Shown here: in pieces, positions 5,740-24,883 of the stretch
Layout: every line of letters starts with the position of its first letter
Numbering within the stretch: the stretch's first letter is position 1
Program-made: the position numbers and the translations under genes
Notes under the pieces: model-generated
What the model saw: only the letters and a program-made list of their open reading frames with translations
Databases searched by the model: none
Told to the model about the DNA's origin: nothing
Assembly (NCBI GenBank): GCA_964616085.1
Contig: CAZTTX010000001.1
Coordinates: 1-38,909, forward strand
DNA length: 38,909 nt
Direction of reading: 5' to 3'
From: an uncultured Methanosarcinales archaeon
GTDB lineage: Archaea > Nanobdellota > Nanobdellia > Woesearchaeales > CAZJJJ01

Positions 5740-7374
5740 TCATACTTTGCCTTGGAGGACCTTCTTTTTGTATGTCCTTATGAAGATGAATGGGAATACG
5801 ATGAGCAGTGCCATTCCTATGATCTCGATGATACTCATAGAAGGCGCCATTATCGTGTGTGAGATGCGTGAATCCATGATTACAGTGCTGAGCACCTTGG
5901 AATCATCTATACCCATGAGCTGAGGCACCCTGCTTATGCCTCTTCCATATTCTGTCCTGTATGAGACCTCCCATTCCTCATTTTTTGCTAGTCTAGGAAG
6001 TTCCCATTCGCCCCTTCCGATATGCTCTTGGGTAATATCGGAGAATGGAGCGTCTTCTATGATATAATCCTTGAGGACCAAGCCCGAGACATCAGCCTCG
6101 CCGATATTCCTCACCGATATCCGTATCTCTGTCCTATCACCACCCAGTCTTATTATGTTCTTCTGCAGATACATCATCTTCTGAGGTATGAAACGTCTTA
6201 TATACGGAGCACGAGTAGAGCTCACTCGCCCTTCGTCGAAGATGGCTTCAGCCTCAGGGAAATAACTCAAGCCTAAAGATTCCTCGTCGACGAAACGCAC
6301 AGAATATCTTATGATCCTAGAACTATCCCTATTCACTTCTACCTGCCATTCCATGTCTTCTGAGTCAGGTGAGCTGACCAGAGAGCTCTCTGTATGTATC
6401 TCCTCGAGCTCAAAACCCTCAGGCACCTTGTCCCTTACATTTATGGTCTTCGGCACAACATCTAGGTTTGTCACGAAGATGGAGACATTGATCACATCGC
6501 CAGGATATACCGTAGAAGGCTCGATCAGCTTCCTCAAGAAAACTAGCGTTCTCTCTCGGAACTCCTTATCCACCTCTGCATAATCAGGATCCTCAGGATC
6601 AGGTGCTGGCACATCCTCAAGCTCGCTCTCATCATAGACATTCAAATCATTATCCTCGGTGATGTCTGCAAGGACACGGGCCAGCTTGTGGTCCACAATG
6701 AGCCAATATACAGAATCTTCGCGCATGCTCTCACTCTGGTCCCTAAAATTACGCGACCATGTGTCTCCGCCATGTATCCTCACATTATCGTCAAATGTCC
6801 ATATCTTATCAGGATTGTTGACGTCTGCATCATCAGTCCTGTGTACCTTGATACTACGGACCTCATAATCCAGCGGTCTTGGATTAGTTATCCCTATGCG
6901 CAAGTTCCTGCTCCTCAGGTCACCCGCCTCGACAATCTCAGATTTCTGTAGGTTTATCCATAGGTCAGAACGGTAACGCAACATATCATCATCCATCAGG
7001 TGCCGCAATACAGATTCCCCATCAGATTCGTAATATCTGACAACGTTCTCAGGAGTCACGCCATATATCCTATATCTGATAGTCTGCGAAGCCCCTTGGT
7101 CCAGATAAGGTATCCGGACACCATCATTGAAGAGAAACCCCGTATCACTTAGTTCAGAGATTGCCAATGTCCCTGGAGTGATATGCAGCTTGATAGTATT
7201 GATTGAGAAATCTTCTGTATTGGTGATAGTTATTTCACCCTCAACATCCACAACATAGTACATGTCGTAATAGTTCAATACTTCTCCTTCTTCCTCTATA
7301 TGTATAGAAGCACCATATACACCTGATAAGAGCAGGAGCGACAATGGTAAAAGGAGAGCAAGGAGTCTTCGCAT
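5740..7374 (-). CDS. secreted, C-terminally membrane-anchored protein with CARDB/DUF11-like beta-sandwich motifs
   Basis: Signal peptide MRRLLALLLPLSLLLLSGVYGAS. Motifs VYPGDVINVSIFVTNLDVVPKTINVRDKVPEGFEL and EIRISVRNIGEADVSGLVLKDY. C-terminal TM followed by KKK tail. Confidence 0.75.
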   Translation of the reverse strand: MRRLLALLLPLSLLLLSGVYGASIHIEEEGEVLNYYDMYYVVDVEGEITITNTEDFSINTIKLHITPGTLAISELSDTGFLFNDGVRIPYLDQGASQTIRYRIYGVTPENVVRYYESDGESVLRHLMDDDMLRYRSDLWINLQKSEIVEAGDLRSRNLRIGITNPRPLDYEVRSIKVHRTDDADVNNPDKIWTFDDNVRIHGGDTWSRNFRDQSESMREDSVYWLIVDHKLARVLADITEDNDLNVYDESELEDVPAPDPEDPDYAEVDKEFRERTLVFLRKLIEPSTVYPGDVINVSIFVTNLDVVPKTINVRDKVPEGFELEEIHTESSLVSSPDSEDMEWQVEVNRDSSRIIRYSVRFVDEESLGLSYFPEAEAIFDEGRVSSTRAPYIRRFIPQKMMYLQKNIIRLGGDRTEIRISVRNIGEADVSGLVLKDYIIEDAPFSDITQEHIGRGEWELPRLAKNEEWEVSYRTEYGRGISRVPQLMGIDDSKVLSTVIMDSRISHTIMAPSMSIIEIIGMALLIVFPFIFIRTYKKKVLQGKV

Positions 7375-7427
7375 AGGTAATCATCATCTATCAAGATTAA
7401 TAAATATTTTTATTGAAGAGACAAGAA

Positions 7428-8150
7428 TTATCTCTTCTTTGATTTTTTCCTGTCAGGGCGTCTCGAATTGAGATATATGAATGTCACGCCAAGCACCATA
7501 AGCACAGACAGCCAGAAGACGCTCACCATCCTGAATGGCATCTGTGGCATCGGCAACCTGGTGTACTCAAGCAAGAGCTCACTATCGCCATCCCATTCTA
7601 TAGTGCGGCGCATACCATCCTGCTCAATCTGAGTATCAGGAGCAAAGGTGACCCTATAACGATTAGGCATCACCAATCTTGTCACACTATCTCTTATGGG
7701 GATTGTCGTCTCTTCTATAGGGAAGAGCATCTCGTGGAACAGGATTCCTGTTGGATTGAACTCAAGCTCATAGCTTATCGAGATCGGATAATCGAAGCCC
7801 GGCAAGATAGGATTGAAGACATGAACGATAAGATCTGAGTAATCACTGTATTTCTCCACACGTGCATCCAGTTCACGAGAATTGTCGCGTGCGTATATCT
7901 CATCGATGTCAGAAGGCACTGTTGTACTGCCTCTCACCTCATACATCCTGAATCGGACCTCGCCTGGCACTATCGGATTGTTGCCTATATTACGCATCAC
8001 AAGATCCTTTTCTACCCTGAGCACATCGCCTTCCAGATAGTATGTCTTGTCGTATTCCTGGAAAGCTACAACATCGAATGCCTCGACCATGGCCGGCATG
8101 AACAGAAGTGCAAGAGATACTGCAAGCAGACACTTCATAATGATTCTCAT
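7428..8150 (-). CDS. secreted membrane-anchored protein, ~245-aa island family (copy 1)
   Basis: The track start at 8177 is GTG; the ATG at 8150 gives MRIIMKCLLAVSLALLFMPAMVEA. C-terminus LEYTRLPMPQMPF + TM + RRPDRKKSKKR, paralogous to 11376-12113. Confidence 0.7.
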   Translation of the reverse strand: MRIIMKCLLAVSLALLFMPAMVEAFDVVAFQEYDKTYYLEGDVLRVEKDLVMRNIGNNPIVPGEVRFRMYEVRGSTTVPSDIDEIYARDNSRELDARVEKYSDYSDLIVHVFNPILPGFDYPISISYELEFNPTGILFHEMLFPIEETTIPIRDSVTRLVMPNRYRVTFAPDTQIEQDGMRRTIEWDGDSELLLEYTRLPMPQMPFRMVSVFWLSVLMVLGVTFIYLNSRRPDRKKSKKR

Positions 8151-8230
8151 GGATATTTCCCTCACATAAGGTGCCACTCAAACACCTACAATCAAATCAA
8201 TAAAATGTAAAAATAAAACAAATATAAAAA

Positions 8231-10330
8231 TTAATCCCTTTTTCGTGTAAGGGCATAGTTAGCGAGATTTATTATGACCAGAGCCAGTACTATCATCACA
8301 TATACTGCCTCGGTGCTCTCAGATGCCATGGAAGACATCACAGATATGACCTCGCTAGCAGGTCCTCCATCTACAAGACGTGGGTCCAGACCTACGATGT
8401 ATAAGTCTGATATCGTATAGTCTCCAGTACCCTCGACTATATATGAGGTATTCCACGTGCTGTACTCATCGCCCGCCGGAGCGAAGGAAGCGTTCTGTGG
8501 AGTCCTCTCTGGAGGCACGTTCCATAGGTAAGCAGTACCATCGAACGATCCAGATACTACCTGCGACTCATCGAAGATAGGGTCTCCCCACTCAGTGACA
8601 TCGAAGTTCTCTGGTACGAAGTCATAGATGGTTACCGTGAGGTCCCTTGGTGTATAGCCAGGACCTATGTTCCAGACATTAAGGCTGATATTATACTCAT
8701 CTTCCCCAATGTTCGTCACATTCTTCTCAATCTCGAGCCAGTAACCGCTGATGACATATATGTACTTGGAGTAAAAGTCGTCACCGCTCTGGGTCTGGAA
8801 GAGGGTTATGATCTGGTCGTCCACATGAGCTATATGGTAATATGGTATAGTCCAGATGATTGGTGGTGGAGCATCAGGATGCGAACCATCAGTGTAGTTG
8901 AAGTACCATCTCTCACCCATTGACAGATACGAGTTCCATCTGTTTTCCACATCAACAAGAGTATCTGGGAAATACCTGTGCTTGAGATTGGTCATTGCGT
9001 TCGGATCCTCATTCTCACTGACCCAAAGGCTGACCTTCGTAAGATTGAACTGAATCTCATTAGAGGTAGCCACAGAAGGTTCAGTCTCCCATGTCACAAT
9101 CCTGTTCTCCTCCTCATCAGCAGGCCTATCAATCCTTTTTGTCATATTGAACCTGAGATCTCCTCTTGCAAGAATCTCTGTTATATCTACTCCTGTTAGG
9201 GTATTATTGGTCTCATACCTCAAGGTCTCTTCAAGGAATCTATAGGTGGAAGAGTTAGGCACTGTGGTAGGAGCACACACAGAGAAGTTTATGCCGAAGG
9301 TATCCCCATGCGCTACAAAACCATCATTCACAGTCCAAGTCCATGACCTGTTCGAGGAATTATCGACATTCTCATAATCTCCAGTAGGAGAGAGCCAATC
9401 GAATGTGAAATTGAATACCGAATCATTCCATGTTACTGAATCAAGATCCATCTGGATCTCGACATTATGCAAGTCGTGTCCTTGTGCAAAATCATTCGTA
9501 GCATTCTGTGATACATTGAAACACTCGTTAGCCAGGACCTTGGTCCTGTATTCGTGTATATAATCTGTGGTTATGTTCAGAGGAGGATCGACCTCGGATG
9601 TCGCGTTATATGTGAATACAGAGTACTCATCAGTACGGAGCTCAGGTATGCTCACTATGACATAATTGTCATTCGGAGCTTGGGTAATCTCAATCTCTCC
9701 TCCATCAATCTGTCCAGGATCGTTAGTTGTACTCTCACCACTCAGCCAGCCGAGGACTTGCCCAGAAGAAGGTGAGATTATAGGCTCATCATCATAAGAT
9801 ATGTCTGGACCATCGCCAAGCTCTCCATCCAAGAATGGGAAAGTTATAAGCTCATTCTCACCACTAAGATCCAATACAAGCCTATCAGATTCAGCCCATA
9901 TGAAATCAGTCCTATTATCACGATTCAGATTTAGGGGGTCAGGTAATGGTTGAGGTGTCCGGTTTATCGGCTCAGTGATAGTCTCGGTGATATTATCCTC
10001 AATTATGCCCACTGCTTGGGTACCATGCCTTCCATCATAGTGCAGGACATCAGTCTGGAGATTCCCCAAGTCCTCAATCCTGAGACGGAGATCGTATATG
10101 GTCTCATTGCTGGGATTAGTGACATTCAACCATCCCTGGATGAGCGCATCATAGACATTCTCCTCCAGATCGAAGAATTCCGCAAACGTGACATTCTGGT
10201 GTGCCATCTCTACCAGTGTCACATTCACATATGTCTGGTTAGTATCTGCCGATGCTGTAGACGCTAGCATAATCAATGATAGGAATGCAAAGAAAGAGAG
10301 CATAACTTTTCCGAAACTATCCTTTTTCAT
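8231..10330 (-). CDS. large sequon-rich surface protein, ~690-aa island family (divergent copy)
   Basis: ATG at 10330 (the track start at 10336 is GTG). Signal peptide ...LIMLASTASA. Many N-x-S/T sequons. CARDB-like YNISLNVWNIGPGYTPRDLTVTIYDFVPENF. C-terminus IVGLDPRLVDGGPASEV + TM + TRKRD. Confidence 0.8.
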   Translation of the reverse strand: MKKDSFGKVMLSFFAFLSLIMLASTASADTNQTYVNVTLVEMAHQNVTFAEFFDLEENVYDALIQGWLNVTNPSNETIYDLRLRIEDLGNLQTDVLHYDGRHGTQAVGIIEDNITETITEPINRTPQPLPDPLNLNRDNRTDFIWAESDRLVLDLSGENELITFPFLDGELGDGPDISYDDEPIISPSSGQVLGWLSGESTTNDPGQIDGGEIEITQAPNDNYVIVSIPELRTDEYSVFTYNATSEVDPPLNITTDYIHEYRTKVLANECFNVSQNATNDFAQGHDLHNVEIQMDLDSVTWNDSVFNFTFDWLSPTGDYENVDNSSNRSWTWTVNDGFVAHGDTFGINFSVCAPTTVPNSSTYRFLEETLRYETNNTLTGVDITEILARGDLRFNMTKRIDRPADEEENRIVTWETEPSVATSNEIQFNLTKVSLWVSENEDPNAMTNLKHRYFPDTLVDVENRWNSYLSMGERWYFNYTDGSHPDAPPPIIWTIPYYHIAHVDDQIITLFQTQSGDDFYSKYIYVISGYWLEIEKNVTNIGEDEYNISLNVWNIGPGYTPRDLTVTIYDFVPENFDVTEWGDPIFDESQVVSGSFDGTAYLWNVPPERTPQNASFAPAGDEYSTWNTSYIVEGTGDYTISDLYIVGLDPRLVDGGPASEVISVMSSMASESTEAVYVMIVLALVIINLANYALTRKRD

Positions 10331-10382
10331 ATTCACTTGAACTCCCTCGCATGAGTTTTGTTGTAATTTATGACCTCACAGA

Positions 10383-10394
10383 TATTTAAATCTT
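10383..10394 (-). promoter_or_regulatory. BRE/TATA core AAGATTTAAATA (minus strand) of the 701-aa gene unit
   Basis: The plus-strand 12-mer tatttaaatctt is identical to those at 16380-16391 and 24944-24955. It lies 53 nt upstream of the ATG at 10330. Confidence 0.55.
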
Positions 10395-10498
10395 TCTATT
10401 AGTATACGTTTATGTATACTCTGAGAGCAAAAAACTCCAAACTTTCAGAAAAAAAGCAAAGCAAAAATATTTAAACCGTCGTCTCGCTTTATAAAAGA

Positions 10499-11215
10499 AT
10501 GGGTGGCAAGGTCAGGTTACTGGCGGTTTTTGTTCTGGTACTGTTGATATCAGCAGTAGAATTAGCAGAAGCGGTATCCATATCACCCTCTGAGCTGACC
10601 ATACGCAATATCGATGAGAGACGTGACTATCAGTTCATAATGCTCTTGGAGAGCAGCAGGGAAGGTCTTGTAGATGTAGAGCTGAAGACTAGCCACGGCT
10701 CTACAGTAGCATCACCTGACAAGTTCATGCTCAACGAAGGAGAACAACGTAGTGTCAGGCTTCACCTAAACCCTAGAGAAGTAGATGATAATCTTGAGAG
10801 CATACGTGTACAGCCATACGTCAATGGAGTGCCCACAGAAGGAAGGCTCACTGTCCTCATAGAAGAGATCCCTGAAACAGTTGAAGATATTGAAGATGAA
10901 AGTGAAAGAATAACTCAAGACCCTGCTTTCTTCACACTCATAATATACGGTCTTGTCTTTGTTGTGGCAATCCTCATAATGCTGATATTCATGCCTGAGA
11001 TAAGGAAGAACATGCGATCAGCAAAGACAAAATCCATAGAGGTCACAGATAAGAGGTTCTATAAGAAGTCAAAAGACAGGATCAAAAAGCTTGGTAAACG
11101 TCTTGATGACTCTGACAAGAGAGTAAAGAATATAATAGAGAAGATAGAGAAGTTCCACGAGGGAGCACATTCATGGATACAAGAGAAAAGCGGTGGTAAA
11201 TATGGCCTCGAATGA
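10499..11215 (+). CDS. single-pass membrane protein with Ig-like ectodomain and K/E-rich cytoplasmic tail
   Basis: Signal peptide MGGKVRLLAVFVLVLLISAVELAEA, beta-rich ~120-aa ectodomain, TM FFTLIIYGLVFVVAILIMLIF, basic coiled tail. TATA atatttaaac at 10467-10476. Confidence 0.7.
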   Translation: MGGKVRLLAVFVLVLLISAVELAEAVSISPSELTIRNIDERRDYQFIMLLESSREGLVDVELKTSHGSTVASPDKFMLNEGEQRSVRLHLNPREVDDNLESIRVQPYVNGVPTEGRLTVLIEEIPETVEDIEDESERITQDPAFFTLIIYGLVFVVAILIMLIFMPEIRKNMRSAKTKSIEVTDKRFYKKSKDRIKKLGKRLDDSDKRVKNIIEKIEKFHEGAHSWIQEKSGGKYGLE

Positions 11216-11369
11216 TGACAAGGAAGATATCAAGAAAGGTATTGATGAGTTAGAGAAGAAGGTTTCAAAGATTGAAGATAATGTCCATCTCCTCACAAAG
11301 ATATTCGAAGAGATATTGAAAGAGTTTGAGAAGATAAAGAAAGATATAGCAAATGAGAACAAGAAATAA
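11202..11369 (+). CDS. small coiled-coil protein (55 aa), hypothetical
   Basis: ORF below the track cutoff: MASNDDKEDIKKGIDELEKKVSKIEDNVHLLTKIFEEILKEFEKIKKDIANENKK. Its ATG overlaps the last 14 nt of the upstream gene. Confidence 0.35.
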   Translation: MASNDDKEDIKKGIDELEKKVSKIEDNVHLLTKIFEEILKEFEKIKKDIANENKK

Positions 11370-11375: not shown

Positions 11376-12113
11376 TCAGGCCAGACTGGCCCTCTCGTTC
11401 TTCCTCGTGATTATCTTCAGCGTCAGGATGGCAGCCGACATCACTATGAGCAGAAGCCATAGCCAGTATCCATGGAATGGCAACATAGGTAACGGCAATG
11501 TCGAATACTCAACAACAATTCTCTGATCATCTGAATCGATTGTCTCCCGCGGGATATCTATAAATGCTGTATTCCCATCACGCTCAGTCACAAGTAGGTT
11601 AGAGTATGTCAGGCTTCTTCCGCTGGGGAAGCTCATGCTTAGCCCCATCCTCTCTATAGGTATCTCTGGCTCACCGAAACTCAGGTCAAGCTGTTTGAAA
11701 AGTACACCTTGAGGCCTGACTTGTGTCCTGAAATCTATCTCGACGCTAAGTCTTTCCCTCGGAGATATAGGACGCCATATCTCGTAATATACTACCTTGT
11801 TGCCATCTTCTAGAACGATGTCCTCTTCCGGTATGGCCCTCTGGCTGCCCCCTACAGATATCATGACATCTTCAGGCTCCAGAGTCCCAAAAAGGACAAA
11901 TTTAGCCCTCCCAGGAATGACTGATTCTGTGTACCTGTTCACAATCTCAAAACTCTGTGTCACTCTTGCAGTATCATCATCTCTCACAGAAATATCTACC
12001 ATGTAATTATCCAATGTCTGAATCATAAGGCTCTGCCCAGATGGACCCTGAGCCATGGCTGGCAACGCCAAGACAACCAACATTATGAATAAGATTAAAC
12101 CCCTCATTTTCAT
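11376..12113 (-). CDS. secreted membrane-anchored protein, ~245-aa island family (copy 2)
   Basis: Signal peptide MKMRGLILFIMLVVLALPAMAQG. C-terminus VEYSTLPLPMLPF + TM + RKNER. Separated by 1 nt from the upstream 685-aa gene. Confidence 0.75.
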   Translation of the reverse strand: MKMRGLILFIMLVVLALPAMAQGPSGQSLMIQTLDNYMVDISVRDDDTARVTQSFEIVNRYTESVIPGRAKFVLFGTLEPEDVMISVGGSQRAIPEEDIVLEDGNKVVYYEIWRPISPRERLSVEIDFRTQVRPQGVLFKQLDLSFGEPEIPIERMGLSMSFPSGRSLTYSNLLVTERDGNTAFIDIPRETIDSDDQRIVVEYSTLPLPMLPFHGYWLWLLLIVMSAAILTLKIITRKNERASLA

Positions 12114-12114
12114 T

Positions 12115-14163
12115 TCACCTCTTGAAATCCTTTGCTACAATTATGCTCAGTAACAGTAAGCTTACAGATAAAGCAATAGATGATAGCAATATAATTCTTT
12201 CTGAACTCTCGCTGATCAATGACATCCTTGATGCCACTGATTGTGCCGGACTGGCACCATCAAGCCGTATAGGATCGACACCTACAATATGGGCATTCTC
12301 GACACGGGCAAGAGAATGGTTACCTCTCATCTTATACCTCACAAGTATCTCGCTCTCGGAGCGATCAACATCATAAAATCCATCCCCATCAGACCCAGGT
12401 TCAAGAGCCCTGAAATCTATATGATACCCCCAAAACCCTTCAAATGGTCCTGAATCTATCAGCCCAGAATCAGCAGCTCCTATTACCATATCGCTCCCAA
12501 GAGGATCATAGAGACGTCTGTCTATATCCCCAGCACTATCTGAGACACGAATAATCCGTCTGTCAGCAGTGAGCTCACGTGAATCCTCTTCATCTTCATT
12601 AGCGAAGTGTAATGGATTGAACCCCTCAGGTAAGAGATCGAACATTGTCACAAGATCCGGTGTCCGCTCATCACCGATGTTCTCTATAGTGATATTGACA
12701 AGATACTTATGCGCTTCATCAGGAGTCTCAAGAGGAGTCAATGCTTTTGTGGCCTTGACGAGATAGCCGCCCAGGAGCACATATATCTCTTCTATGTATA
12801 GGTAATCATCAGAGGGACCTGACATAGTCTGGTTCAGGAGAGCCAGTTGATTCCCATCATCATATATGAAGAAATCGGCTGTCATCCACACTATGGGGAC
12901 ATATGAATAGTTGAAAGTCATCGAGAAGTCGTCTATATAGGAGCCTGAGCTCAGGTTCAGGCTGGTACGCCATGTTGCATTCGCTGTAGTTCCCTCCTCT
13001 TGACCGTATGCCGAAGCGAAGAGCACAGTATCACCAATCCAAGAGTCCTGATCACCAGGATTTGAGAACTCGCCTTGTTTTGTGGCCCATAGTGTCACCT
13101 GTCTAAGCTCGTAGTCGAGAGGTGCCTTCGCTATATTGGATACATTAGCAGTAGTGTTCCAGTACCCTGAGACATTAACTCTCTCTTTTGTAGTAGACAT
13201 GGTAGCATCAGTCGGCCTCACAGTCAAGTTGGAGAGCTCAATCCCAGAGAGTGAACCATTGGCTGCGAAACTGGCACTAAGGTTTCCCATGTTCATCCAG
13301 CCAGCCCACTGATCAGATTCAGACCAATTAATAGACACATTGACTGGAGCTGTACTATTGAATATTATGCCCCGTGTCTCACCTTGAGACAAGACCCCTC
13401 CAGAAGGTGTCCAGTTGATTACAGTGCGTCCATAGGAATCTGTGAAGATCTCAGCATTCGAGACATCATCACCTCTAAGCTCGTCATATGTGAAGAAGAC
13501 ATTGTCCTCATTCGGATTTGTAGAATTGTAAAGATGTGGCGTCTTGGATATGACTAAGTCATATATATCCACATTATCCTCAAACATGTTAGTCACATTG
13601 ACAGCCACTTCCAGAGAGCGTCCGGTCATCACACGCCAATCAGAATATACCTCTGTGAAATTCAAAGGTTCAGTATATGTGTCTGGTGTGGTGTTGAATC
13701 CGAGTATGAGCGAATCTCCTGCTCTCATCTCTGGTATGAAGAATATTGTCTCAGTAGCAGCCTGAGGATCTTCCATATCAACAGATGAATGATATATGAG
13801 ATAATCTGGCTTGTCAATCAACCACCAAGAGTTTATGTTCTCAGTATTATCCATTGTAAGATTGATTGATGAAAAAGTAGAGTTACCAATATCCTCAACA
13901 TTTGATATATTTAGGACGCCTTCTATAGAAGTATCATGAAGCTCTACTCCAGTCCTACTGGTACCGGTCCTGTTCTCTCCAAGATGACCTGGAGCCTCTA
14001 CAATCTGACCATCTACCTCTATAGTCTGATCATACGACAAGATCTGCGAGATATGCTCAGTAGAAGTGACTCGAACTGCTGGTGAAGATGCATATGTACA
14101 AGGCAGCCCAAAGACTAAGAAAAAGAAAAATACGACTACCAAAGTCTTTCCATACGAAAACAT
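12115..14163 (-). CDS. large sequon-rich surface protein, ~690-aa island family (copy B)
   Basis: ATG at 14163 (the track start at 14172 is GTG). Signal peptide. Clearly alignable along its full length to 14204-16285. YLVNITIENIGDERTPDLVTMFDLLPEGF. C-terminus IVGVDPIRLDGASPAQSV + TM + KDFKR. Confidence 0.8.
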   Translation of the reverse strand: MFSYGKTLVVVFFFFLVFGLPCTYASSPAVRVTSTEHISQILSYDQTIEVDGQIVEAPGHLGENRTGTSRTGVELHDTSIEGVLNISNVEDIGNSTFSSINLTMDNTENINSWWLIDKPDYLIYHSSVDMEDPQAATETIFFIPEMRAGDSLILGFNTTPDTYTEPLNFTEVYSDWRVMTGRSLEVAVNVTNMFEDNVDIYDLVISKTPHLYNSTNPNEDNVFFTYDELRGDDVSNAEIFTDSYGRTVINWTPSGGVLSQGETRGIIFNSTAPVNVSINWSESDQWAGWMNMGNLSASFAANGSLSGIELSNLTVRPTDATMSTTKERVNVSGYWNTTANVSNIAKAPLDYELRQVTLWATKQGEFSNPGDQDSWIGDTVLFASAYGQEEGTTANATWRTSLNLSSGSYIDDFSMTFNYSYVPIVWMTADFFIYDDGNQLALLNQTMSGPSDDYLYIEEIYVLLGGYLVKATKALTPLETPDEAHKYLVNITIENIGDERTPDLVTMFDLLPEGFNPLHFANEDEEDSRELTADRRIIRVSDSAGDIDRRLYDPLGSDMVIGAADSGLIDSGPFEGFWGYHIDFRALEPGSDGDGFYDVDRSESEILVRYKMRGNHSLARVENAHIVGVDPIRLDGASPAQSVASRMSLISESSERIILLSSIALSVSLLLLSIIVAKDFKR

Positions 14164-14203
14164 CTCACACACACTTGATAAATAAATATGAATAAAAAGA
14201 AAA

Positions 14204-16379: not shown

Positions 16380-16391
16380 TATTTAAATCTT
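16380..16391 (-). promoter_or_regulatory. BRE/TATA core AAGATTTAAATA (minus strand) of the 693/685/245-aa unit
   Basis: Same 12-mer as at 10383 and 24944. It lies 95 nt upstream of the ATG at 16285, in the only sizeable gap (164 nt) inside the island. Confidence 0.5.
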
Positions 16392-16449: not shown

Positions 16450-19400
16450 TCACATATAGTATTTCTCTATCTCATAACGCCTGTATAGATAATACAAGAC
16501 GAACATGCTGAGTAGCAATACGAAGAATAGCACCATCATTATGATCTCTACATTATTTCTCCTGTAGAGCAGGATGTTGAAATTATGAGGCGAGATTATC
16601 TCCATAGTTGATTCATAGTCAACATCTGCTATCACTAATGGTTTGGACAATGTCTCAATGTCTATCTTGGATGCAGTATAGCTTACCTCAAGCGTCTCGT
16701 TAGCTTCAAGTCGTGTGCGTGAGAGTGCTATATATGGTGGCCTCGTCCCCGAAGTATGGAAATCATCACCCGAAAATATCACATCATCCTTGCCCACGAG
16801 AGACTCCTCAAGGTATATCTTCAGAGGACGCTTAAGATAGTTATTCATGGTCAGAGTGATATTATAGGCATCTCCATGCTCATAGACTCTCTTATGGACT
16901 CTTAGAGGGACATCATATACATCATATGTCTCCACCACACCACTGACAAGTCTCCGTATGCCATGGGATGTTATGCCGACATGGTAAAGGAACCTATCAG
17001 GATGTCTAGGCGTCTGCATCGACACAGTGACATTAGTTGAATTCCCTGGCTCAAGGAAGGCCACACCACTATCAAAGAATACCCAATCCTTTGATGACAA
17101 GAAGGAGATGTCATAGAGTGAACGCTCACCCGTATTACGTATTTCCATATTCGCTTCAGCCCTTGTCCCAGTCTCAGCCCTTATAGGCCCTATACGGGCT
17201 TCCAGCGAATATCCTTCAATAGGCTCATGCTCTATGAAAGTGACATTATCTAGAGGATACTCCGGGATATCAAGAGGTATCTCTCGTTCAAGGACCCTGA
17301 ATGTCCAATTATGGTCCGCTGTACCCACATTGCCGGAAAGATCAGTACACATCACGTTCCATGAATAGCTATCCTCATTGAGAGGACCATGGATGAAGCG
17401 ATTCTCTCCTAACAGAGGCGCATGGTCACTCTTTACGAGCTCCCATGGACCTGCACCTTCCTTATGTATTATTCCGCCCACAGGATCATATATTATGTTC
17501 ATATTCTGGATATAGAGGTCACATCTCTCAGGATGGTTGAAGTCATTGACCCTATACTCAAAGTTGACCATAGGAGTTCCTACAATGGATACATCTTGAG
17601 GCTTCATCAAGGTCACATCAGGAGGTTCAGTGTCGTTGATGACAGAGAATGCTCTTGTTCTCCAGGCCTCGTTCCCTGAAGTATCGTTCGCGAACACAGT
17701 TGCCTCATATCCACCAATCTCTGTAAGCTCTGAAGGGGTCAAGGTCACATTCTCATGATATTCTCCAAGCAATGAGCCGTCAGGATATGTCACATTCATG
17801 ATATAGCTGTCCAAGAAAACATCAGACACACCCCAAGTTATATTCACGTCACGCAAACCAAATTCTGCCACCTCTGGCTCTATGTCCAGGAAGATTTCTG
17901 GCGGATTCATGTCAAGTGTGAATTCCCATATTTCAGAAGTTGTGCTATCAGCACCATCATAAGCCAGGACACGCCAATAGTATCTTCCGTCGGGAAGGAC
18001 CTTGTCAAGCATGTAGTTAGTCTCGTTATCGACAAACATGATCTCTAGTTCAGGATCCCTGAAAGACGAGTTCTGGGATGCCTGGAGTATATAGAACACT
18101 TCCCAGAAATCATCCTCATTAGGATTCTCAGCATCAGGATTGGTAGTGTTTGTCCAATTGAATTCGAAGAAATCAGTATGGAACGTGTCATTGTATGGAT
18201 GTACTAGCTCTACGGGCAATGGTGGACGGTTCAGGTTTATCACAGAGAGATTCCATTGCAGCCATGCTTCTCCCCCATCAGAATTGTTCACCATATAATC
18301 GACCACATAGTCCCCTGATGAGTGGAAATCAAAGTGGACCTGCATGGAATCGTTCGAGCTCATATTCTTCCCATTCATCCACCATCTATGCTCCAGTGTC
18401 CTGTTCTCTATGTCTGTGGCATTCACCCAGAAGTCTAGTGTATTGTTCTCAAGGAACTCAATCTCATATATGTCATCCTCCATCTCAAGGAAGAATGTGT
18501 CTGAGTCTATGGTCCAGTCATTGATGTCAGGAGGATGTATATATTTCTCTACGAATATGTTGATATTCGCAGTATCTGTATAATGCCCATCGCTGACGCT
18601 CACATTCAAGGAGACATTACCCCAATGGTCGATAGGATCATCACATACTATGAACCTGTCTTCAACAACATCACACCCCATTATGGTCTCATTGGAATTA
18701 TTTAGTATATCGTACTCAAGGCTGCTGTGAGGATATACCGGGTCATAGCTTATCTCCCACAGGTCTATCATAGTGGGCGGGAAAGCATCCTTCTGCATCA
18801 TTGTATAATTAGTATCATTGATGACTGGAGGATAGTTCTCGTACAACACCTCCACATTGAAATGCGCTGTATCGTTCCATACTGTTATGTCCTCATTATG
18901 CACTTCCATCCGCACTGTCCTATTCCCAGTCCACAAGTCTATGGATGTGATATTGAGCAGGCCTGTCTCGTGGCTCATCATGAAGCTCAGATTCTCTCCG
19001 AAGGCTGCCCACTTGAGGTCATCCCAATCATAGTGATCCTCATCAAACTTCAAAGATAGGTTTATTGTATCATTCCATAGGTTCGTATAGAAGACAACAT
19101 CGGGTATATCTTCAGTTATTATCGGCGGATATACAGTGAGTGAGAAATTATTGGTTGTTGTAGATAGGTTAAGATGGTTAGTTGCGGTTATCTCCATCCA
19201 CCTTTCCCTGATGCCCGTCCAGTTCTCATCAGGCGTGATACGCATCGTCTGTGTGTCCTGATCTATATCTACAGAAAGATTGTCAAGCCCGCCTGTATAG
19301 TTGAACGTGAAATTATGGTCCTCCATGTAAGGGTCGTAGAGCCATTCAGTCAGATTCATCTCATGGGTAGTATTCTGCATCCAGTACTGGTCTGGGACCT

Positions 19401-21315
19401 CATTAAGATGTGGTGGCTGCTCTGTCCTGGTCACATTTATCATCCAGCTCTCCATATCATACATGCCACGGGTATCGTTGACTACTAATGTGACATTACG
19501 CATACCAAAATCTACAAAGTCTAAATACCAGCTGAAGAGACGCCCAATCTGCCTGACTGCGCCATCAACCAGCCAGTAGAACCAAGAGTTGGGCAATGAA
19601 CCCTCCACACCAGGATGGATAGCGTCTGCTGTGAAATTAAGTGTCTGCTCGACCTCAGCATCTATAGGCTCCCCATCATATATGTCTTCTGTGATCCACC
19701 AGGTCCCGTTAGTTATGTTCCAATATATTATCTCGGGCGTAGCCACAACATCCATATTGAAGAGGTTCGATGGGACCTCGCGCCCGAAAGGATCTGTAGA
19801 TATTATCCTGGCTGTACGTTCTCCGAAGAATCCTTCATCAGGGACAAGCTTGATCTGTTGCGCACTGTCGTTTATCATGAACGTTATATTGCTGACAGGG
19901 TCTGGCTCATGTGTATATGTCAGAGGGTCGTCCTCATGGTCCCAGAAGTAATCTGTCATGTTCAGTGTGTAATTAGTGTTGATTTCCCATTGAAGATCAG
20001 GAATCTCGTTTATGTTCTCTTGGAGCTTGTTCACATTCACAGTATAGTTCTCTTTTGCGAAATTAGCATGCCTACCTCGCATGTCTTCACAGAACACGTT
20101 CCAGACCAAACTCCCTGTGTTGTTGAATGTTGTCAGTGAGAAATTGCCGTGAGTCACATTCTCAAGGACCTCGCCATGATCCTCCCATTCTCCTGTGACA
20201 TTAGAAAAGAGAGAACAAGTAGAGTTTGTGGTGACTGTGAAACCCATGTCGAGCTCCTCATTGAAATCTGCATATGTACCATTCTCCGGCTCGGTCAGAT
20301 TGACTATGAAGAAATCAAAATCATAATCTTCTGCAGAACCATCGAAAGTGTAATTAGAGAATAATTCAAAATCCCATATCACATCATAAGAGACCTCGCT
20401 CCACACAACAGGCACGTGCTCAGAAACGAAGAAATCCTCCTGCTTGCAGACATCTCCATACTCCACCACAGTATCCTGCTCATTGATACAGTGTCCATGA
20501 TTGTTCTCAAATATGACATTCTCAGCAGGATTCCCTGTGGTGTTAGGCTCGGGTGTCGCCCATAGCTTGATGTTGGTTATGTTCATAGGTATACGGTCCG
20601 CGCTTATGAAGTCGAAACCGACACGCCATTTTGAGCCATCTGCCTCAGAGCCATAAGATACTCTTTCCTTCTCTGTAGAGAATCTTGAATGGGGCAATAC
20701 ATTGAACCTATATTCAGGTAGCATACCTTCGCCAATTATATGATAAGTGGCATGATTGAATTCACGTATCCCAGACATCTGTGATCTGCAGGTCACATTG
20801 AGCTCAAACTCTGAACCCCGAGGCATCTCATACTCAAGAGTTAGATTGTTACCTTCTTCCGAGAAGTATGTTATCTCATCCGATGCGGAATGTGAGACAT
20901 AAGAACAGAAATCTGGCAGGGGTAACATCATCTTTATTTCTGTGTCATAAGAGAAGTTATGCGTCAGGTTTCGCTGTATAGTTACCTCATCCATGTAGCC
21001 ATAGAAACCAATATCTTCTGTGAAAGGAACGTCATCGAAAGATCTCTCATAATCTACAAGTATGCTCTGATGCCTGGGCACAGTGTACTCATAATAGCTG
21101 AAATTTCCAATGTTCGCGGAGAATGCCCTATACTCGAAGTCATCATCAAGAGAGAGTTTTCCATGCAGTGGATTGGATATCTCAGTGATGTTGCCTGTCT
21201 CGTTCACGAAGACGGTTGGAGCTTCCAACGCAGCCACGTCCATAGATACGACTGAGAGCACAAGGGCTAGCATGATCATGATCCTCATTCCCATCCTGTA
21301 TCTTTCACATCCCAT
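16450..21315 (-). CDS. giant (1621 aa) multi-repeat adhesin-like surface protein, C-terminally anchored
   Basis: Signal peptide. Four cadherin-like/putative-Ig modules beginning (E/D)(I/V)PD... (about 18540-20015). PKD-like segments (FYWLVDG..., WWMNGKN...). An FN3-like GRYYWRVLAYDG segment. CARDB-like MEIRNTGERSLYDISF. Terminal TM followed by RRYEIEKYYM. Confidence 0.85.
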   Translation of the reverse strand: MGCERYRMGMRIMIMLALVLSVVSMDVAALEAPTVFVNETGNITEISNPLHGKLSLDDDFEYRAFSANIGNFSYYEYTVPRHQSILVDYERSFDDVPFTEDIGFYGYMDEVTIQRNLTHNFSYDTEIKMMLPLPDFCSYVSHSASDEITYFSEEGNNLTLEYEMPRGSEFELNVTCRSQMSGIREFNHATYHIIGEGMLPEYRFNVLPHSRFSTEKERVSYGSEADGSKWRVGFDFISADRIPMNITNIKLWATPEPNTTGNPAENVIFENNHGHCINEQDTVVEYGDVCKQEDFFVSEHVPVVWSEVSYDVIWDFELFSNYTFDGSAEDYDFDFFIVNLTEPENGTYADFNEELDMGFTVTTNSTCSLFSNVTGEWEDHGEVLENVTHGNFSLTTFNNTGSLVWNVFCEDMRGRHANFAKENYTVNVNKLQENINEIPDLQWEINTNYTLNMTDYFWDHEDDPLTYTHEPDPVSNITFMINDSAQQIKLVPDEGFFGERTARIISTDPFGREVPSNLFNMDVVATPEIIYWNITNGTWWITEDIYDGEPIDAEVEQTLNFTADAIHPGVEGSLPNSWFYWLVDGAVRQIGRLFSWYLDFVDFGMRNVTLVVNDTRGMYDMESWMINVTRTEQPPHLNEVPDQYWMQNTTHEMNLTEWLYDPYMEDHNFTFNYTGGLDNLSVDIDQDTQTMRITPDENWTGIRERWMEITATNHLNLSTTTNNFSLTVYPPIITEDIPDVVFYTNLWNDTINLSLKFDEDHYDWDDLKWAAFGENLSFMMSHETGLLNITSIDLWTGNRTVRMEVHNEDITVWNDTAHFNVEVLYENYPPVINDTNYTMMQKDAFPPTMIDLWEISYDPVYPHSSLEYDILNNSNETIMGCDVVEDRFIVCDDPIDHWGNVSLNVSVSDGHYTDTANINIFVEKYIHPPDINDWTIDSDTFFLEMEDDIYEIEFLENNTLDFWVNATDIENRTLEHRWWMNGKNMSSNDSMQVHFDFHSSGDYVVDYMVNNSDGGEAWLQWNLSVINLNRPPLPVELVHPYNDTFHTDFFEFNWTNTTNPDAENPNEDDFWEVFYILQASQNSSFRDPELEIMFVDNETNYMLDKVLPDGRYYWRVLAYDGADSTTSEIWEFTLDMNPPEIFLDIEPEVAEFGLRDVNITWGVSDVFLDSYIMNVTYPDGSLLGEYHENVTLTPSELTEIGGYEATVFANDTSGNEAWRTRAFSVINDTEPPDVTLMKPQDVSIVGTPMVNFEYRVNDFNHPERCDLYIQNMNIIYDPVGGIIHKEGAGPWELVKSDHAPLLGENRFIHGPLNEDSYSWNVMCTDLSGNVGTADHNWTFRVLEREIPLDIPEYPLDNVTFIEHEPIEGYSLEARIGPIRAETGTRAEANMEIRNTGERSLYDISFLSSKDWVFFDSGVAFLEPGNSTNVTVSMQTPRHPDRFLYHVGITSHGIRRLVSGVVETYDVYDVPLRVHKRVYEHGDAYNITLTMNNYLKRPLKIYLEESLVGKDDVIFSGDDFHTSGTRPPYIALSRTRLEANETLEVSYTASKIDIETLSKPLVIADVDYESTMEIISPHNFNILLYRRNNVEIIMMVLFFVLLLSMFVLYYLYRRYEIEKYYM

Positions 21316-21320
21316 TGTAT

Positions 21321-24044
21321 CTAGCCTATATTGTAAGTTCCTCCTACTACCGTGTTATCCTCTATCCTGGCAAGAGGCGTAATGCTGCTGAGCCCGTAAG
21401 TGAGCTGGTATGAGGTGTTACCCTCTAATGATCCGATGTTCCAGTAATGCATAGTTCCGAGACCTATATGGCTGACAGACACATCCAAGTCAGGCTCCTC
21501 GTTGAAATCTGCAGCGAATCCATCACTCACGAAATCACCGATGACCACATCATAGATGGTGGCCTTTCCCCTGTTCGTGATGTTTATGACAACCGCAAAC
21601 TCTCCAAAAGCCTCATGGGTGATGTCCTTGTCTATGAAGAGATCAGATGTTGTCACATCCAAGAGCATGGATTCTTCACTATTGCTTGCGATATAATGAT
21701 CACCCTCATCATCCTCTATCATGCATGTGATTTTATGGACACCAGGAAGCTCTGGCTCGAAATCTACGCTGGCCCAGCCCTCTGTATCCGCAGATTGGAC
21801 ACCTATCTCACCCTCCAGATCAGAATAGAAGACCACATCATACCCATGGATGCCATTACCTGTGAATGCATCGATGACACGGCAAGATACTCCAGTGGAG
21901 TAGCCCAATGTCAGCGAACTCCGTGTGAGGGATATCTCTTGTATATATGACAGGGAATAGATGTCTATCGAGTTGGACACGGCAAGATCATCATGGTCAT
22001 CACTCGTGCACATGACTGAGTAATCATACTCACCCCTTTCAGAGAAATCCCTCTCATACTCATGGGTTTCTGATGTATCATAAGACATTGTGTGATTGCC
22101 ACTCTCATCAGAGAAATTTATATCGCATTGGGCAGGTTCTATCGGATTGCCTGTAGAGAAATCAGAATAGTTTGCATAGAATCCTGCAGTCTCGTCAATA
22201 AGCACAGTCATATTCTCAAGATCTTCAGAGGTGTCATCCCACACTAGCAGTTCAGAATCGAAGCCATCACCACCAGCATACGCGCTGAAGCTATCTACGA
22301 TGAAAGAGACATGCGTCTCGTTCTGCTCGAAGCTTATGTCAGTAAGCTCCCAAAGGTCACAGTCTGCACCCTCATAATCCCATTCTGAGCAACGTAGTAT
22401 GACCTCGGTCTCGCGTTCTTCTTCCTTCTCCAATATTATCTCGGCCTCTGTGACATTCAGCCCATCAAGAGCGAAGATATCAGTAGATATCCTCTCATTC
22501 ATTGACCTCAATGATTGTATGCCAGACACACCATCTACAGAAGGGACACCACGAAGATGGGCTATCGAACTACCACTTATGTTCAAAGAGAGATCATAGC
22601 TTGAATTCTCTTCATCATAAGAGATGTTCATTATATCTATCAGCTTAGTCCCTGCTACCTCCCTGCCCTGTTCTATGGCAGGCTGTAGGACAGCATCCCT
22701 TGCATAGTCCATCCTGGAAAGGACCTGTATCTCTCTTGTGGATGAGAGGTCGATATCATCTATCCGTACCTCGACCGTATATTGGCCTGGGTGCTCTGGT
22801 GAATATATGATCTCACGATCGTCCTCTGTGAATACAGATGAGATCTCAAGCGTCTCACCATCAACCGATGTTATCACAATCGTGGCAGGTACCTCATCAT
22901 CCAGATCGACACCTTCCAGGTCTATGGGGATCTCAAGCTTCTCATTCACGGAATAGAAATCGCGGACATCCATAAGTATCGTCTGCGAAGGCGGAGTGCC
23001 GAACATGTCCTCTGTAGCGACCACTAGCTTTGACTCACGAGTATACTCCTCATCATGATGAGTAGATGCTGCATGTATCTCATAGACACCATCCTCATCA
23101 GCATAGAATATTACGCGAGGATCATACCCAGAATTACTGTATCTCACGCCTGAAGGGGATTCTACTGTAAGGTCTATCTTGTCCGTGAAGGGCCTGTTGC
23201 CCAACAGCGCATAGGATTCCACAGTGACCTCATTGCCTACCGCATATACACCCTCATGCCTCAATCGCAGAGAATAATCAGGTTCAGCATAATATGTTAT
23301 CTCACGGACACTCTCGACAAGGTCTCCTGAGTGTAATGTCACATTTATCTCGTAGGTCCCTGCCTCAGTGAAGTTCACAAAGCACTCGAAGTCATACTCG
23401 CCGGGCACAGTGAAGCTGCATGTCTGTCGCTCATCATAACCATCCGTATCGGACGACTTGGGCCAGACGCTCACCTTGAGCTCATTATCATCACGCATTG
23501 AAGATGATGTCATCCTGCCAGTGATTCTCGCATTGCTATAGGCCTCCTCGAAACGCACATCAAGATCCAGAGAATCAGGGTCGTCATCCTTGATGATGAG
23601 CTCTTCTTCGATGTCATCCTGGTCGAACTCCGCGAAGAGATAGTAGTCATCATTGTCAAAGACGGTACGCGATATCATGGTATATTCAGATATGTTCTCT
23701 GCGACGCAGGTGAATACCATCTCGCCAGTGCCGTCGACTGAGCATTCATCAAGCACATCCATACCATCTGATGTGTGCAATGTCACATTCACAGGCGCAT
23801 CAACCAGCTCGACAGACTCACCATCATCGAAAGAGGTGTTGATATCACCCTCAAACATTATGTTCCCATCGTCAAGGTATGTGGCATTCTGTATTATGAC
23901 ATCGAAGATGAATCCTCCAGATGCGTTCAGGCTATCTCCTGGGCTGGATGAAGCATATGAATATCCTGATACGAGCAGAAGCCCAAGCATCATCATAGCA
24001 AAGGATGCAACATGCCATGCACTAGTGACTCTTGATGTCCTCAT
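21321..24044 (-). CDS. 907-aa secreted acidic multi-Ig-like protein without C-terminal anchor
   Basis: Signal peptide ...LLLVSGYSYASS. Repeated beta-rich acidic modules. Big/Ig-like block GVSCRVIDAFTGNGIHGYDVVFYSD. CARDB-like FAVVINITNRGKATIYDVVIGDFVSDGF. Ends 5 nt before the giant gene. Confidence 0.85.
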   Translation of the reverse strand: MRTSRVTSAWHVASFAMMMLGLLLVSGYSYASSSPGDSLNASGGFIFDVIIQNATYLDDGNIMFEGDINTSFDDGESVELVDAPVNVTLHTSDGMDVLDECSVDGTGEMVFTCVAENISEYTMISRTVFDNDDYYLFAEFDQDDIEEELIIKDDDPDSLDLDVRFEEAYSNARITGRMTSSSMRDDNELKVSVWPKSSDTDGYDERQTCSFTVPGEYDFECFVNFTEAGTYEINVTLHSGDLVESVREITYYAEPDYSLRLRHEGVYAVGNEVTVESYALLGNRPFTDKIDLTVESPSGVRYSNSGYDPRVIFYADEDGVYEIHAASTHHDEEYTRESKLVVATEDMFGTPPSQTILMDVRDFYSVNEKLEIPIDLEGVDLDDEVPATIVITSVDGETLEISSVFTEDDREIIYSPEHPGQYTVEVRIDDIDLSSTREIQVLSRMDYARDAVLQPAIEQGREVAGTKLIDIMNISYDEENSSYDLSLNISGSSIAHLRGVPSVDGVSGIQSLRSMNERISTDIFALDGLNVTEAEIILEKEEERETEVILRCSEWDYEGADCDLWELTDISFEQNETHVSFIVDSFSAYAGGDGFDSELLVWDDTSEDLENMTVLIDETAGFYANYSDFSTGNPIEPAQCDINFSDESGNHTMSYDTSETHEYERDFSERGEYDYSVMCTSDDHDDLAVSNSIDIYSLSYIQEISLTRSSLTLGYSTGVSCRVIDAFTGNGIHGYDVVFYSDLEGEIGVQSADTEGWASVDFEPELPGVHKITCMIEDDEGDHYIASNSEESMLLDVTTSDLFIDKDITHEAFGEFAVVINITNRGKATIYDVVIGDFVSDGFAADFNEEPDLDVSVSHIGLGTMHYWNIGSLEGNTSYQLTYGLSSITPLARIEDNTVVGGTYNIG

Positions 24045-24883
24045 GAGAGATCACCTCCCATGGCAGATCCTGGAACACTCTCGAGCCTCTTCAGTGAGGC
24101 AAGAGATTTGCTTATGCTAGAAGTCTTGCGTACGATTCCCGGAGTCACTCTCTTGCCAACCTTCTCAGAATGCTGCGATAGGATCTGTTGTGCTCTCCTC
24201 GGGGTCATGGGAGAGCCACGGTTGCTCGTGAATATATGTCCGCCATCAGACAATCTCTGCAGCAGCATTGAGAGACCTTCGGATATCCTGCAGACATCTT
24301 CGGATTTGGCGAATCTAGAATCTGTCTGCGGGACACGGATCGCTTCACCAAGGATATCCGATCCTCTAAGATTCAGCGCCTGGCCCACAGTTATACCGGT
24401 CTCTACAATCAGACGTATGAAAGCCTCATCCCTATCAGAGCCTGTATCAGAGAGCATCTCATCAATATCATGCACAGTCAGCATCCCATCATCCTTGGGA
24501 TGCTCAGATTTTGAGCAGAAGATGCGGCCAACACCAAGCCGTCTCAACTCTCTTGAGCTGTAGCCTGTATTAGATTTTATTATCTGCTGTACGCGCCTAG
24601 GTGTGAGTCTTGTGATGCAGTTAGGAGAGAAGAGTGGCCATCCAGATTTCCTCGTAGCAATCAGTTTTTTGAGAGAATGCTCCAATTCCTCATCTATCTT
24701 GATGTTCCTTCCATCCAGCGCGAGAGAATTGTCTTTGACATCATCCACATCTAGAGCGATCACATCACTCGTCTTGAGGTCGTGCAAATATACAAGAAGG
24801 CAGATATTCCTGTCTCTGTCAGAATCTATGTTATACAGATATCTCTCCAACGCGCCCGTAGGGCAGACCTCATCAAAATACAC
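24041..24883 (-). CDS. tandem degenerate tyrosine-recombinase (Xer/phage-integrase)-like catalytic-domain protein, probably non-catalytic DNA binder
   Basis: GTG start. Two similar halves: DRDRNICLLVYLHDLKTSDV...LTPRRVQQIIK and DRDEAFIRLIVETGITVGQAL...MTPRRAQQILSQHSEKVGKRVTPGIVRKT. These resemble the RD..ll..TGlR.sE...ls.r.vq.i.k...g..vtPH.LRH blocks of Xer. The box-I Arg and box-II His are replaced and there is no terminal Tyr region. Its stop overlaps the ATG of the 907-aa gene (ATGA). Confidence 0.5.
   Translation of the reverse strand: MYFDEVCPTGALERYLYNIDSDRDRNICLLVYLHDLKTSDVIALDVDDVKDNSLALDGRNIKIDEELEHSLKKLIATRKSGWPLFSPNCITRLTPRRVQQIIKSNTGYSSRELRRLGVGRIFCSKSEHPKDDGMLTVHDIDEMLSDTGSDRDEAFIRLIVETGITVGQALNLRGSDILGEAIRVPQTDSRFAKSEDVCRISEGLSMLLQRLSDGGHIFTSNRGSPMTPRRAQQILSQHSEKVGKRVTPGIVRKTSSISKSLASLKRLESVPGSAMGGDLS

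Follow-up and report, generated by a model that had tools for sequence, protein, structure and literature searches.

The whole 38,909-nt stretch of DNA that was analyzed (hereafter the window; contig CAZTTX010000001.1 of assembly GCA_964616085.1, from an uncultured archaeon) holds, at positions 5740–24883, a cluster of genes for secreted, mostly membrane-anchored proteins. The best reading of the cluster, and the one towards which we lean, is a two-tier envelope coat carrying lineage-specific adhesins; an envelope role is also the most economical one. This reading builds on two protein families encoded side by side, both here and at distant archaeal loci: a ~690-aa family rich in N-x-S/T sequons and a ~245-aa partner family that is almost free of them. 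Archaeal surface-glycoprotein clusters are a known kind of locus, of which this one is an uncharacterized variant; we do not place it in a category of its own. Its novelty lies in an architecture that is ordered and conserved and in a gene pair shared across phyla.

We called signal peptides and transmembrane (TM) segments with a hydropathy heuristic (Kyte–Doolittle, 19-aa window, ≥1.6) and obtained expected sequon numbers from 1,000 composition shuffles per protein. The open reading frames sat where the initial annotation had placed them, and an N-terminal hydrophobic segment was present in all nine proteins to which it had ascribed Sec-type signal peptides. Its count of seven proteins ending in a hydrophobic helix and a K/R tail was also reproduced (p544, p249, p701, p245, p685, p693, and p1621); p238 had a TM segment followed by a ~70-aa K-rich tail, and p907 had no C-terminal TM segment. 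All nine had been described as sequon-rich, which was true of five. In p693, where a hand count had given about 31 sequons and a several-fold excess, there were exactly 31 against 7.5 ± 2.4 expected (z = 9.6). The others were p1621 (71 observed, 17.4 expected), p701 (26 and 8.6), p685 (24 and 7.1), and p907 (18 and 6.2). The remaining four carried one sequon (p544) or none (p249, p245, and p238), at or below the expected 0.8–2.5. This split into hyper-sequon and sequon-free proteins is a feature of the cluster itself.

The ~690-aa family is represented by p693 (14204–16285, minus strand), which has a signal peptide and a C-terminal TM segment with a basic tail, its TM-anchored paralogue p685 (12115–14172, minus strand; the likely start is the ATG at 14163, and the database copy, P0016, has 682 aa), and p701 (8231–10336, minus strand), which is TM-anchored and more ancestral-looking. 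BLASTP supported the three copies proposed initially: p685 and p693 were 48% identical end to end (E = 0), and p701 was 23–25% identical to p685 and p693 (E = 8e-15 and 4e-17). Sequon sites in the family were conserved in position. All 25 sequences, the distant paralogue p701 among them, had four of these sites, and at least 21 of the 25 shared 13, with each member carrying 22–39 sequons. The conserved sites include N93, N109, N179, and N200. Such conservation of position indicates that glycosylation has been selected for and that the sequons are no accident of composition.

The initial annotation could assign no product to a named family. This no longer holds for the ~690-aa proteins, since identical or near-identical database copies of p693, p685, and p701 carry the Pfam domains AF2028_C and AF2028_3rd (PF27408/PF27409); PF27408 was precomputed on P0001 (100% identical to p693), on P0016, and on p701 orthologues. 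Our own AF2028_C hidden Markov model (HMM), built from 12–13 diverse members, scored the three proteins at E 1e-39 to 1e-49. The domains are nevertheless uncharacterized: the recent Pfam entries only name domains of unknown function, after an uncharacterized Archaeoglobus protein, AF_2028. p701 was the best match for four of nine distant AF2028-type homologues (L009 and both L011 proteins, from Woesearchaeota metagenome-assembled genomes (MAGs), and L017_612), with E = 6e-41 for the L009 homologue.

The AlphaFold2 (AF2) model of p693 was of moderate confidence (predicted local distance difference test, pLDDT, 74) and all-beta apart from its ends: a signal helix is followed by several beta-sandwich domains in a row, and a TM helix closes the chain. 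Mu-homology domains of AP-2 mu2, FCHo1, and delta-COP dominated its top 50 PDB fold matches (E ~5e-9; TM-score normalized to the target ~0.6), which is surprising for an archaeal protein that would lie outside the cell; integrin legs were also among the best. Multi-beta-sandwich queries attract such matches, so the mu-homology resemblance may be a generic one between double beta-sandwiches; we treat it as a curiosity and did not use it as functional evidence. The best match in a viral fold library was a DUF11 protein, and the family matched DUF11 in HMM comparison at E = 7.5e-4 and 6.8e-3, with no direct Pfam DUF11 match. Across the 12–13 diverse AF2028_C domains aligned, K489, D525, and D642 (p693 numbering) were invariant. 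The Lys-to-Asp spacing was 36–37 residues, close to the 33 in the Lys-Asp-Asn isopeptide triad of CLIPPER/DUF11 domains (PMC12617251). From these residues we hypothesize that a stabilizing isopeptide bond may form in the membrane-proximal AF2028_C domain. Self-BLAST detected no internal repeats in p1621, p907, p544, p701, or p693, and sequence searches of PDB with p693 and with the profiles of the 690-aa and 245-aa families gave no significant match. A relationship between the two families was considered and rejected on a negative profile–profile test.

The partner p245 (11376–12113, minus strand) consists of a signal peptide, a ~190-aa beta-sandwich, a juxtamembrane/TM segment, and a basic tail; the second member, p249, lies at 7428–8177 (minus strand; the likely start is the ATG at 8150). 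Their paralogy, as initially claimed, was evident from 22% identity over the full length (E = 2e-13, BLASTP), and a gene of this family indeed follows each ~690-aa block. The motif reported for them, EY(T/S)xLP(M/L)PxxPF followed by a TM helix, proved to be conserved. In p245 the segment reads EYSxLPLPxLPF-GYWLWL; within EY[ST]xLPxPxxPF, E202 and P207 were invariant in 14 diverse members, and L206, P209, P212, and F213 were also invariant among 25 close relatives. The LPLPxLPF motif was restricted to one protein family. No NCBIfam model of archaeosortase-type CTERM sorting signals (PGF-CTERM and others) matched at E ≤ 0.1, although short models can be missed in such a search.

The 245-aa family has no Pfam family of its own. 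p249 was 32% identical to L017_243 (E = 1.6e-49), and a further search with the family profile added at least two members, P0171 and P0172. The best match to DUF2207_N (PF09972) was P0050, at 21.7 bits (E = 2.5e-4), below the 24.4-bit gathering score; the alignment was collinear, with residues 47–186 placed on model positions 2–139. Collinear sub-threshold matches to this domain were found in four of the 25 close relatives and not in p245 itself, and the distant L012_244 gave a weaker one (E = 0.28).

The AF2 model of p245 (pLDDT 78, likewise moderate) was a single beta-sandwich with a TM helix. Foldseek matches at E ~1e-7 to 1e-6 were ITIH1, the N-domains of M1 aminopeptidases, and ribophorin I/Ost1 in four oligosaccharyltransferase (OST) structures. 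Ribophorin I 6s7o_E gave the highest query-normalized TM-score (0.53; root-mean-square deviation 4.1 Å, 193 columns), and the other OST matches, 8b6l_O, 6ezn_A, and 6s7t_E, were at E ~1e-6. These matches bear on the idea that the 245-aa family is a glycosylation helper, a one-domain counterpart of ribophorin I/Ost1 that would work with AglB on the neighboring hyper-sequon substrates and hold the freshly glycosylated chain at the membrane, instead of being a structural part of the coat. Besides the fold, the type I topology is that of ribophorin I/Ost1, the partner is encoded directly behind proteins with 23–39 sequons and has almost none itself, and Ost1 is reported to bind glycosylated peptides (PMC7226087). 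However, the fold is not OST-specific, as ITIH1 and the M1-aminopeptidase N-domains equal or beat ribophorin I by E-value, and p245 lacks a cytosolic domain and has a single luminal domain where ribophorin I/Ost1 has two. Neither the 25 family members (E ≤ 10) nor 10 further ones (E ≤ 1) matched Ribophorin_I (PF04597), a negative to be read with the caution that HMMER filters drop most matches above about E 0.1. The sole sequence-level link is the sub-threshold DUF2207_N, a domain without known function. The archaeal enzyme, AglB, is known to consist of a single subunit (PMC7226087), and there was no AglB gene in the window or in the loci examined. We regard a helper role as quite unlikely. 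More specifically, the partner might be an archaeal protein of one domain that is related to ribophorin I/Ost1, or analogous to it in function, and that serves as a substrate-dedicated N-glycosylation accessory; this we regard as a long shot. If it were true, OST accessory subunits would not be confined to eukaryotes and Asgard archaea but would also exist in DPANN, in Thermoproteota/Korarchaeota, and in further archaea.

The pairing of the two families was also found well outside the close relatives of the source organism. Searching 1.84 billion representative proteins with the 690-aa family profile yielded 109 clusters (50% identity), mostly of 560–760 aa, under the names Woesearchaeota, a Korarchaeota/Thermoproteota MAG, and Hydrothermarchaeota. 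The family therefore looks small in sequence databases but cross-phylum, and it reaches Archaeoglobus by Pfam family name. An AF2028_C-type gene and a partner gene were adjacent in five of eight distant loci, with partners of 210–244 aa (HMM E 3e-17 to 8e-61). The gene orders, given as protein lengths in aa, were 688, 688, 243, and 616 (p544-like) in L011; 605 and 244 in L012; 709, 210, and a giant (>2,500) in L013; 606, 243, and 1,587 (beta-helix) in L016; and 662, 612, 243, 572 (p544-like), and a giant (2,627) in L017. In L009, L014, and L015 the AF2028-type gene stood alone. An MJ0538-like 238-aa gene near the L009 homologue was tried as a partner and rejected, being cytoplasmic and unrelated to p245.

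At the distant loci the large proteins of the pair had 600–710 aa and a TM anchor. The sequon split recurred at L016 and L017, the distant loci for which sequons were counted (23–38 in the large proteins, 0–2 in the partners). The pair was often trailed by a p544-like gene (E = 1.7e-9 for L011_616; 28% identity, E = 1.3e-55 for L017_572) or by a giant adhesin-like gene, the giants including beta-helix or DUF2341 proteins. Because the pair occurs in the Korarchaeota/Thermoproteota MAG and in L016, a gyrase-encoding archaeal contig, and the large family in Hydrothermarchaeota and, by name, Archaeoglobus, the core is not specific to DPANN archaea or to symbiosis; it appears to be an old archaeal module of two or three genes. 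The literature searched for AF2028/AF_2028 gave only unrelated uses of the string, and neither the gene pairing nor the sequon pattern was found described in it. The beta-helix protein of L016 (8582–13345, 1,587 aa, without a TM segment) ends in ...IYWIGVDPRGVK, an hhhG[VLI]DP strand of the type that closes AF2028_C just before the 690-family anchor.

Three further proteins of the cluster carry DUF11 or immunoglobulin (Ig)-like domains. p1621 (16450–21315, minus strand) is a giant adhesin-like glycoprotein with Big_3_4 (E = 3.5e-8), Big_13, Big_9, and CARDB-like domains and a C-terminal TM anchor. p907 (21321–24044, minus strand) is secreted and acidic, with Ig-like (Filamin/Big_1-like) domains and a C-terminal DUF11-like domain (Pfam E = 0.022, under the cut-off). 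p544 (5740–7374, minus strand) is the TM-anchored third member of the p701-p249-p544 triad and has DUF11/CLIPPER-like domains; its DUF11 (PF01345) score was 24.7 bits against a cut-off of 24.6, and it was 23% identical to the C-terminal domain of p907 (E = 3.6e-5, BLASTP). A CARDB/DUF11-like pattern had been noted in six proteins; this was supported for p544, p907, and the 690-aa family and was weak in p1621 (CARDB E = 0.067). p907 and p280 were the two fastest-diverging members of the cluster, with p907 only 33% identical to its L001 orthologue, against 73% for L11.

A second account of the cluster is a host-attachment apparatus in which adhesins would bind and hold the host of an ectosymbiotic DPANN cell, p1621 and p907 being the contact proteins and the others the anchor. 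Big, Filamin, CARDB, and DUF11 domains are typical of fibrillar adhesin stalks (PMC12617251), the rapid divergence of p907, together with p280, is expected of a partner-recognition protein, giant beta-helix or DUF2341 proteins trail the core pair at distant loci, and the genomic context is of DPANN type. On the other hand, the core is also present in the Korarchaeota/Thermoproteota MAG and the AF2028-type family in Hydrothermarchaeota, lineages not known as ectosymbionts. The domain scans detected no lectin, protease, or pore-forming domain, and there is no known host. We consider host attachment unlikely as an account of the cluster as a whole; contact with a host is possible for p1621 and p907 and is not indicated for the core. 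Of the initial suggestion of an envelope or host-contact apparatus, the modular cluster of secreted, membrane-anchored proteins was supported, with an envelope role as its most economical reading, and the host-contact half gained no specific support, the core being found outside DPANN.

Scans of all ten products against Pfam, NCBIfam, and PADLOC found no enzyme, ATPase, transporter, pilin, or defense family, only weak Ig-like/DUF11 matches, in agreement with the initial annotation as far as enzymes, ATPases, transporters, and pilins are concerned. The nine secreted-type proteins listed there for 5740–24883 were all present, but the range also holds a non-secreted XerA-like protein, p280, and a conserved 58-aa protein, p58.

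The genes are organized in three operons on the minus strand (p280-p907-p1621, p693-p685-p245, and p701-p249-p544) and one divergent pair, p238/p58. The exact sequence GATTTAAATA occurs three times in the 38.9 kb, each time upstream of one of these operons and nowhere else: at 24954–24963, 71 nt upstream of the p280 start; at 16380–16389, within the 164-nt gap after p1621; and at 10383–10392, before p701 (all minus strand). As one-mismatch versions precede housekeeping genes, such as those for FtsZ and FKBP, we read GATTTAAATA as the TATA box of the organism in its consensus form. A TATA-like element with one mismatch, TATTTAAACC on the plus strand (10468–10477), lies in the divergent intergenic region, 22–31 nt upstream of the p238 start. 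Repeat D5 is common to the p693-p685-p245 and p701 promoters.

The full gene order (integrase-like, ~910, ~1620, ~690, ~685, and ~245; the oppositely oriented 58 and ~238; then ~700, ~240, and ~544, with cc392 and Memo beside) was kept in L001, L002, L004, and L005, and over the retained span in the contig-truncated L003, L006, and L007, at 45–87% identity. L008 was the exception, with three p693-type copies and an inverted p907/p280 end. A scan of genome contigs returned four loci, all from close relatives. The GC content of the cluster was close to that of its flanks. No long direct or inverted DNA repeats were found, the paralogues sharing only 74% identity over 111 nt; the duplications are therefore old, and no inversion switch is visible in the sequence.

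An integrase-like gene at the head of operon 1 raises the alternative of a mobile or phase-variable island, in which this gene would move or invert parts of the cluster and so vary surface antigens. The gene, p280 (24041–24883, minus strand), has a stop codon that overlaps the p907 start by 4 nt. It opens operon 1 in every relative, and paralogous modules are present. The protein matched NCBIfam XerA at E = 9e-15 (54.9 bits, cut-off 220) and Phage_integrase at 31.6 bits. Aligned to the XerA structure 5hxy, however, p280 has Thr in place of Arg I and Gly in place of the HxxR His, and it lacks a C-terminal Tyr. These losses are common to all six orthologues (Arg I to Thr; the HxxR His to Gly, Ser, Arg, Gln, or Asn; no C-terminal Tyr). 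Because Arg I, the His, and the Tyr nucleophile are lost in all of them, p280 as predicted from its sequence cannot be an active recombinase. A partial integrase catalytic domain is duplicated in tandem in this protein, and LTPRRVQQI and MTPRRAQQI are invariant in both halves. Here a recombinase fold may have taken on DNA binding and a regulatory role, which is a guess. With the dead catalytic residues and the missing long repeats, recombinase-driven surface variation was rejected. The gene order and flanks conserved across species and the flank-like GC content also argue against mobility, and the mobile or phase-variable alternative is very improbable and already largely refuted. The locus initially called an island is instead a stable chromosomal cluster, neither mobile nor horizontally acquired, as synteny is kept in close relatives, L008 apart, and GC content is like that of the flanks.

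The divergent pair lies between operons 2 and 3. p238 (10499–11215, plus strand) is a type I membrane protein with a signal peptide, a ~110-aa ectodomain, an acidic linker, a TM segment, and the K-rich cytoplasmic tail; orthologues were present in L001, L002, L004, L005, L007, and L008, truncated in L003, and not detected in L006. p58 (11193–11369, plus strand) is a small cytoplasmic coiled-coil protein that is downstream of p238 and overlaps its end. Equivalents are called as 54–58-aa genes in relatives, and the identity of p58 (65–86% in L001–L007, 41% in L008) exceeds that of any neighboring surface protein. At the other end of the cluster, cc392 (4558–5736, plus strand) is a cytoplasmic coiled-coil neighbor of uncertain membership with a repeated C-terminal [FW]W.[KR]..DW[FL]TEE motif. 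In its longer form, (S)[FLW]W.[KR]..DW[FL]TEE[IV][ED]EE, the motif is repeated twice at the C-terminus and kept in four orthologues. The gene adjoins the cluster in relatives in either orientation.

The flanks of the window consist of archaeal housekeeping genes (NurA, thermosome, two FtsZ, Spt5/NusG, L11, FKBP, and Memo), and close homologues of the cluster proteins are encoded in MAGs that bear the label Candidatus Woesearchaeota or Nanoarchaeota, as well as in JGI contigs, the longest of 1.29 Mb. On account of these flanks and labels, the source organism is a small-genome DPANN-type archaeon, as the initial annotation had supposed for genome size and domain. Its halophily, also supposed, was not established: median isoelectric points (pI) of 5.1 for cytoplasmic and 4.5 for cluster proteins fit a mildly acid-shifted proteome and do not prove a halophilic lifestyle. 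The two FtsZ paralogues (27259–28452, minus strand, and 37531–38595, plus strand) are less than 10 kb apart. Glucose-6-phosphate dehydrogenase, 6-phosphogluconolactonase, and 6-phosphogluconate dehydrogenase are encoded consecutively at 30288–33803 (minus strand), completing the oxidative pentose-phosphate branch, which is uncommon in archaea. A very acidic cupredoxin/plastocyanin-like membrane-associated protein (25062–25670, minus strand; pI 4.05, 27% D+E) adjoins the cluster upstream, and its gene keeps this cluster-adjacent position in L005 and L006.

In the two-tier coat that we favor, the 690-aa proteins would be exported by Sec, would receive N-glycans from the cell's AglB, and would stay attached through their TM anchors, forming an outward-facing, glycan-covered layer. 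Each would consist of consecutive beta-sandwiches, a DUF11/CLIPPER-like AF2028_C domain, a short linker, and the TM segment, with 20–40 position-conserved sequons. The sequon-free ~245-aa proteins would lie beneath this layer at the membrane and pair with the 690-aa proteins via the conserved TM/juxtamembrane segment, and the giant Ig-domain proteins would be displayed on or through the coat. The lineage carries the core module twice, as p693+p685+p245 and p701+p249+p544, joined by the lineage-specific adhesin-like p907 and p1621, the pseudo-recombinase p280, and the membrane protein p238 with the coiled-coil p58.

The cluster shows several likenesses to described systems. The hallmarks of surface-layer (S-layer) glycoproteins, a Sec signal, many sequons, and a C-terminal anchor, are combined in p701, p685, p693, and p1621. 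DPANN candidates for S-layer or anchor proteins (Nanobdella MJ1_0160 and MJ1_0707, NEQ300, and Micr_00292) have a signal peptide, several Ig-like beta-sandwiches, 13–49 predicted N-glycosylation sites, and often a C-terminal TM segment (bioRxiv 10.1101/2023.10.27.564410). By description, the proteins of the cluster are like them in Ig-like folds, many sequons, and the C-terminal TM segment, but those candidates are scattered single genes, whereas the genes here form a conserved multi-operon cluster of fixed order that includes a small partner of their own. In the Sulfolobales, too, the large glycosylated outer protein (the SlaA canopy) and a smaller one anchored in the membrane (the SlaB stalk) are products of neighboring genes. 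Here, however, the large protein has its own TM anchor, and the small one is all-beta with a TM segment and sequon-free, not a coiled-coil stalk; the Foldseek lists of the 50 best matches to the two models, p693 and p245, contained neither SlaA nor SlaB. DUF11-type domains, seen in p544, in p907, and in the fold of the 690-aa family, recall the DUF11/CLIPPER (CnaA-like) fibrillar adhesins (PMC12617251). The proteins here differ in having one or two such domains each, without long tandem stalks, and Asp instead of Asn as the third triad residue.

A number of points weigh against the coat. The structural models are of moderate confidence. We found no similarity to characterized S-layer families (S_layer_N/C, DUF1608, halobacterial glycoprotein, and SlaA/SlaB) with Pfam and NCBIfam at E ≤ 0.1, in PDB sequence searches, or among the top p693 fold matches. 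The retention of three TM-anchored paralogues is unusual for a protein that forms an S-layer lattice. In one genome, AF2028-type genes occur together with a separate gene for a 959-aa protein with a weak S_layer_C match, so the AF2028 family need not be the S-layer. Finally, three distant homologues (L009, L014, and L015) have no adjoining partner gene, and we infer the physical pairing of the 690-aa and 245-aa families from gene adjacency only.

The lifestyle of DPANN archaea depends on what their cells display at the surface, and we know of no envelope protein of Woesearchaeota-type lineages that has been identified experimentally. For these lineages the cluster provides a concrete, conserved set of candidate envelope proteins. 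The AF2028-type glycoprotein and its small partner form a cross-phylum module that we did not find described in the literature searched. The contrast of hyper-sequon with sequon-free members in one cluster and the partner's ribophorin-like fold lead to directly testable hypotheses on how archaeal surface glycoproteins may be assembled or glycosylated.

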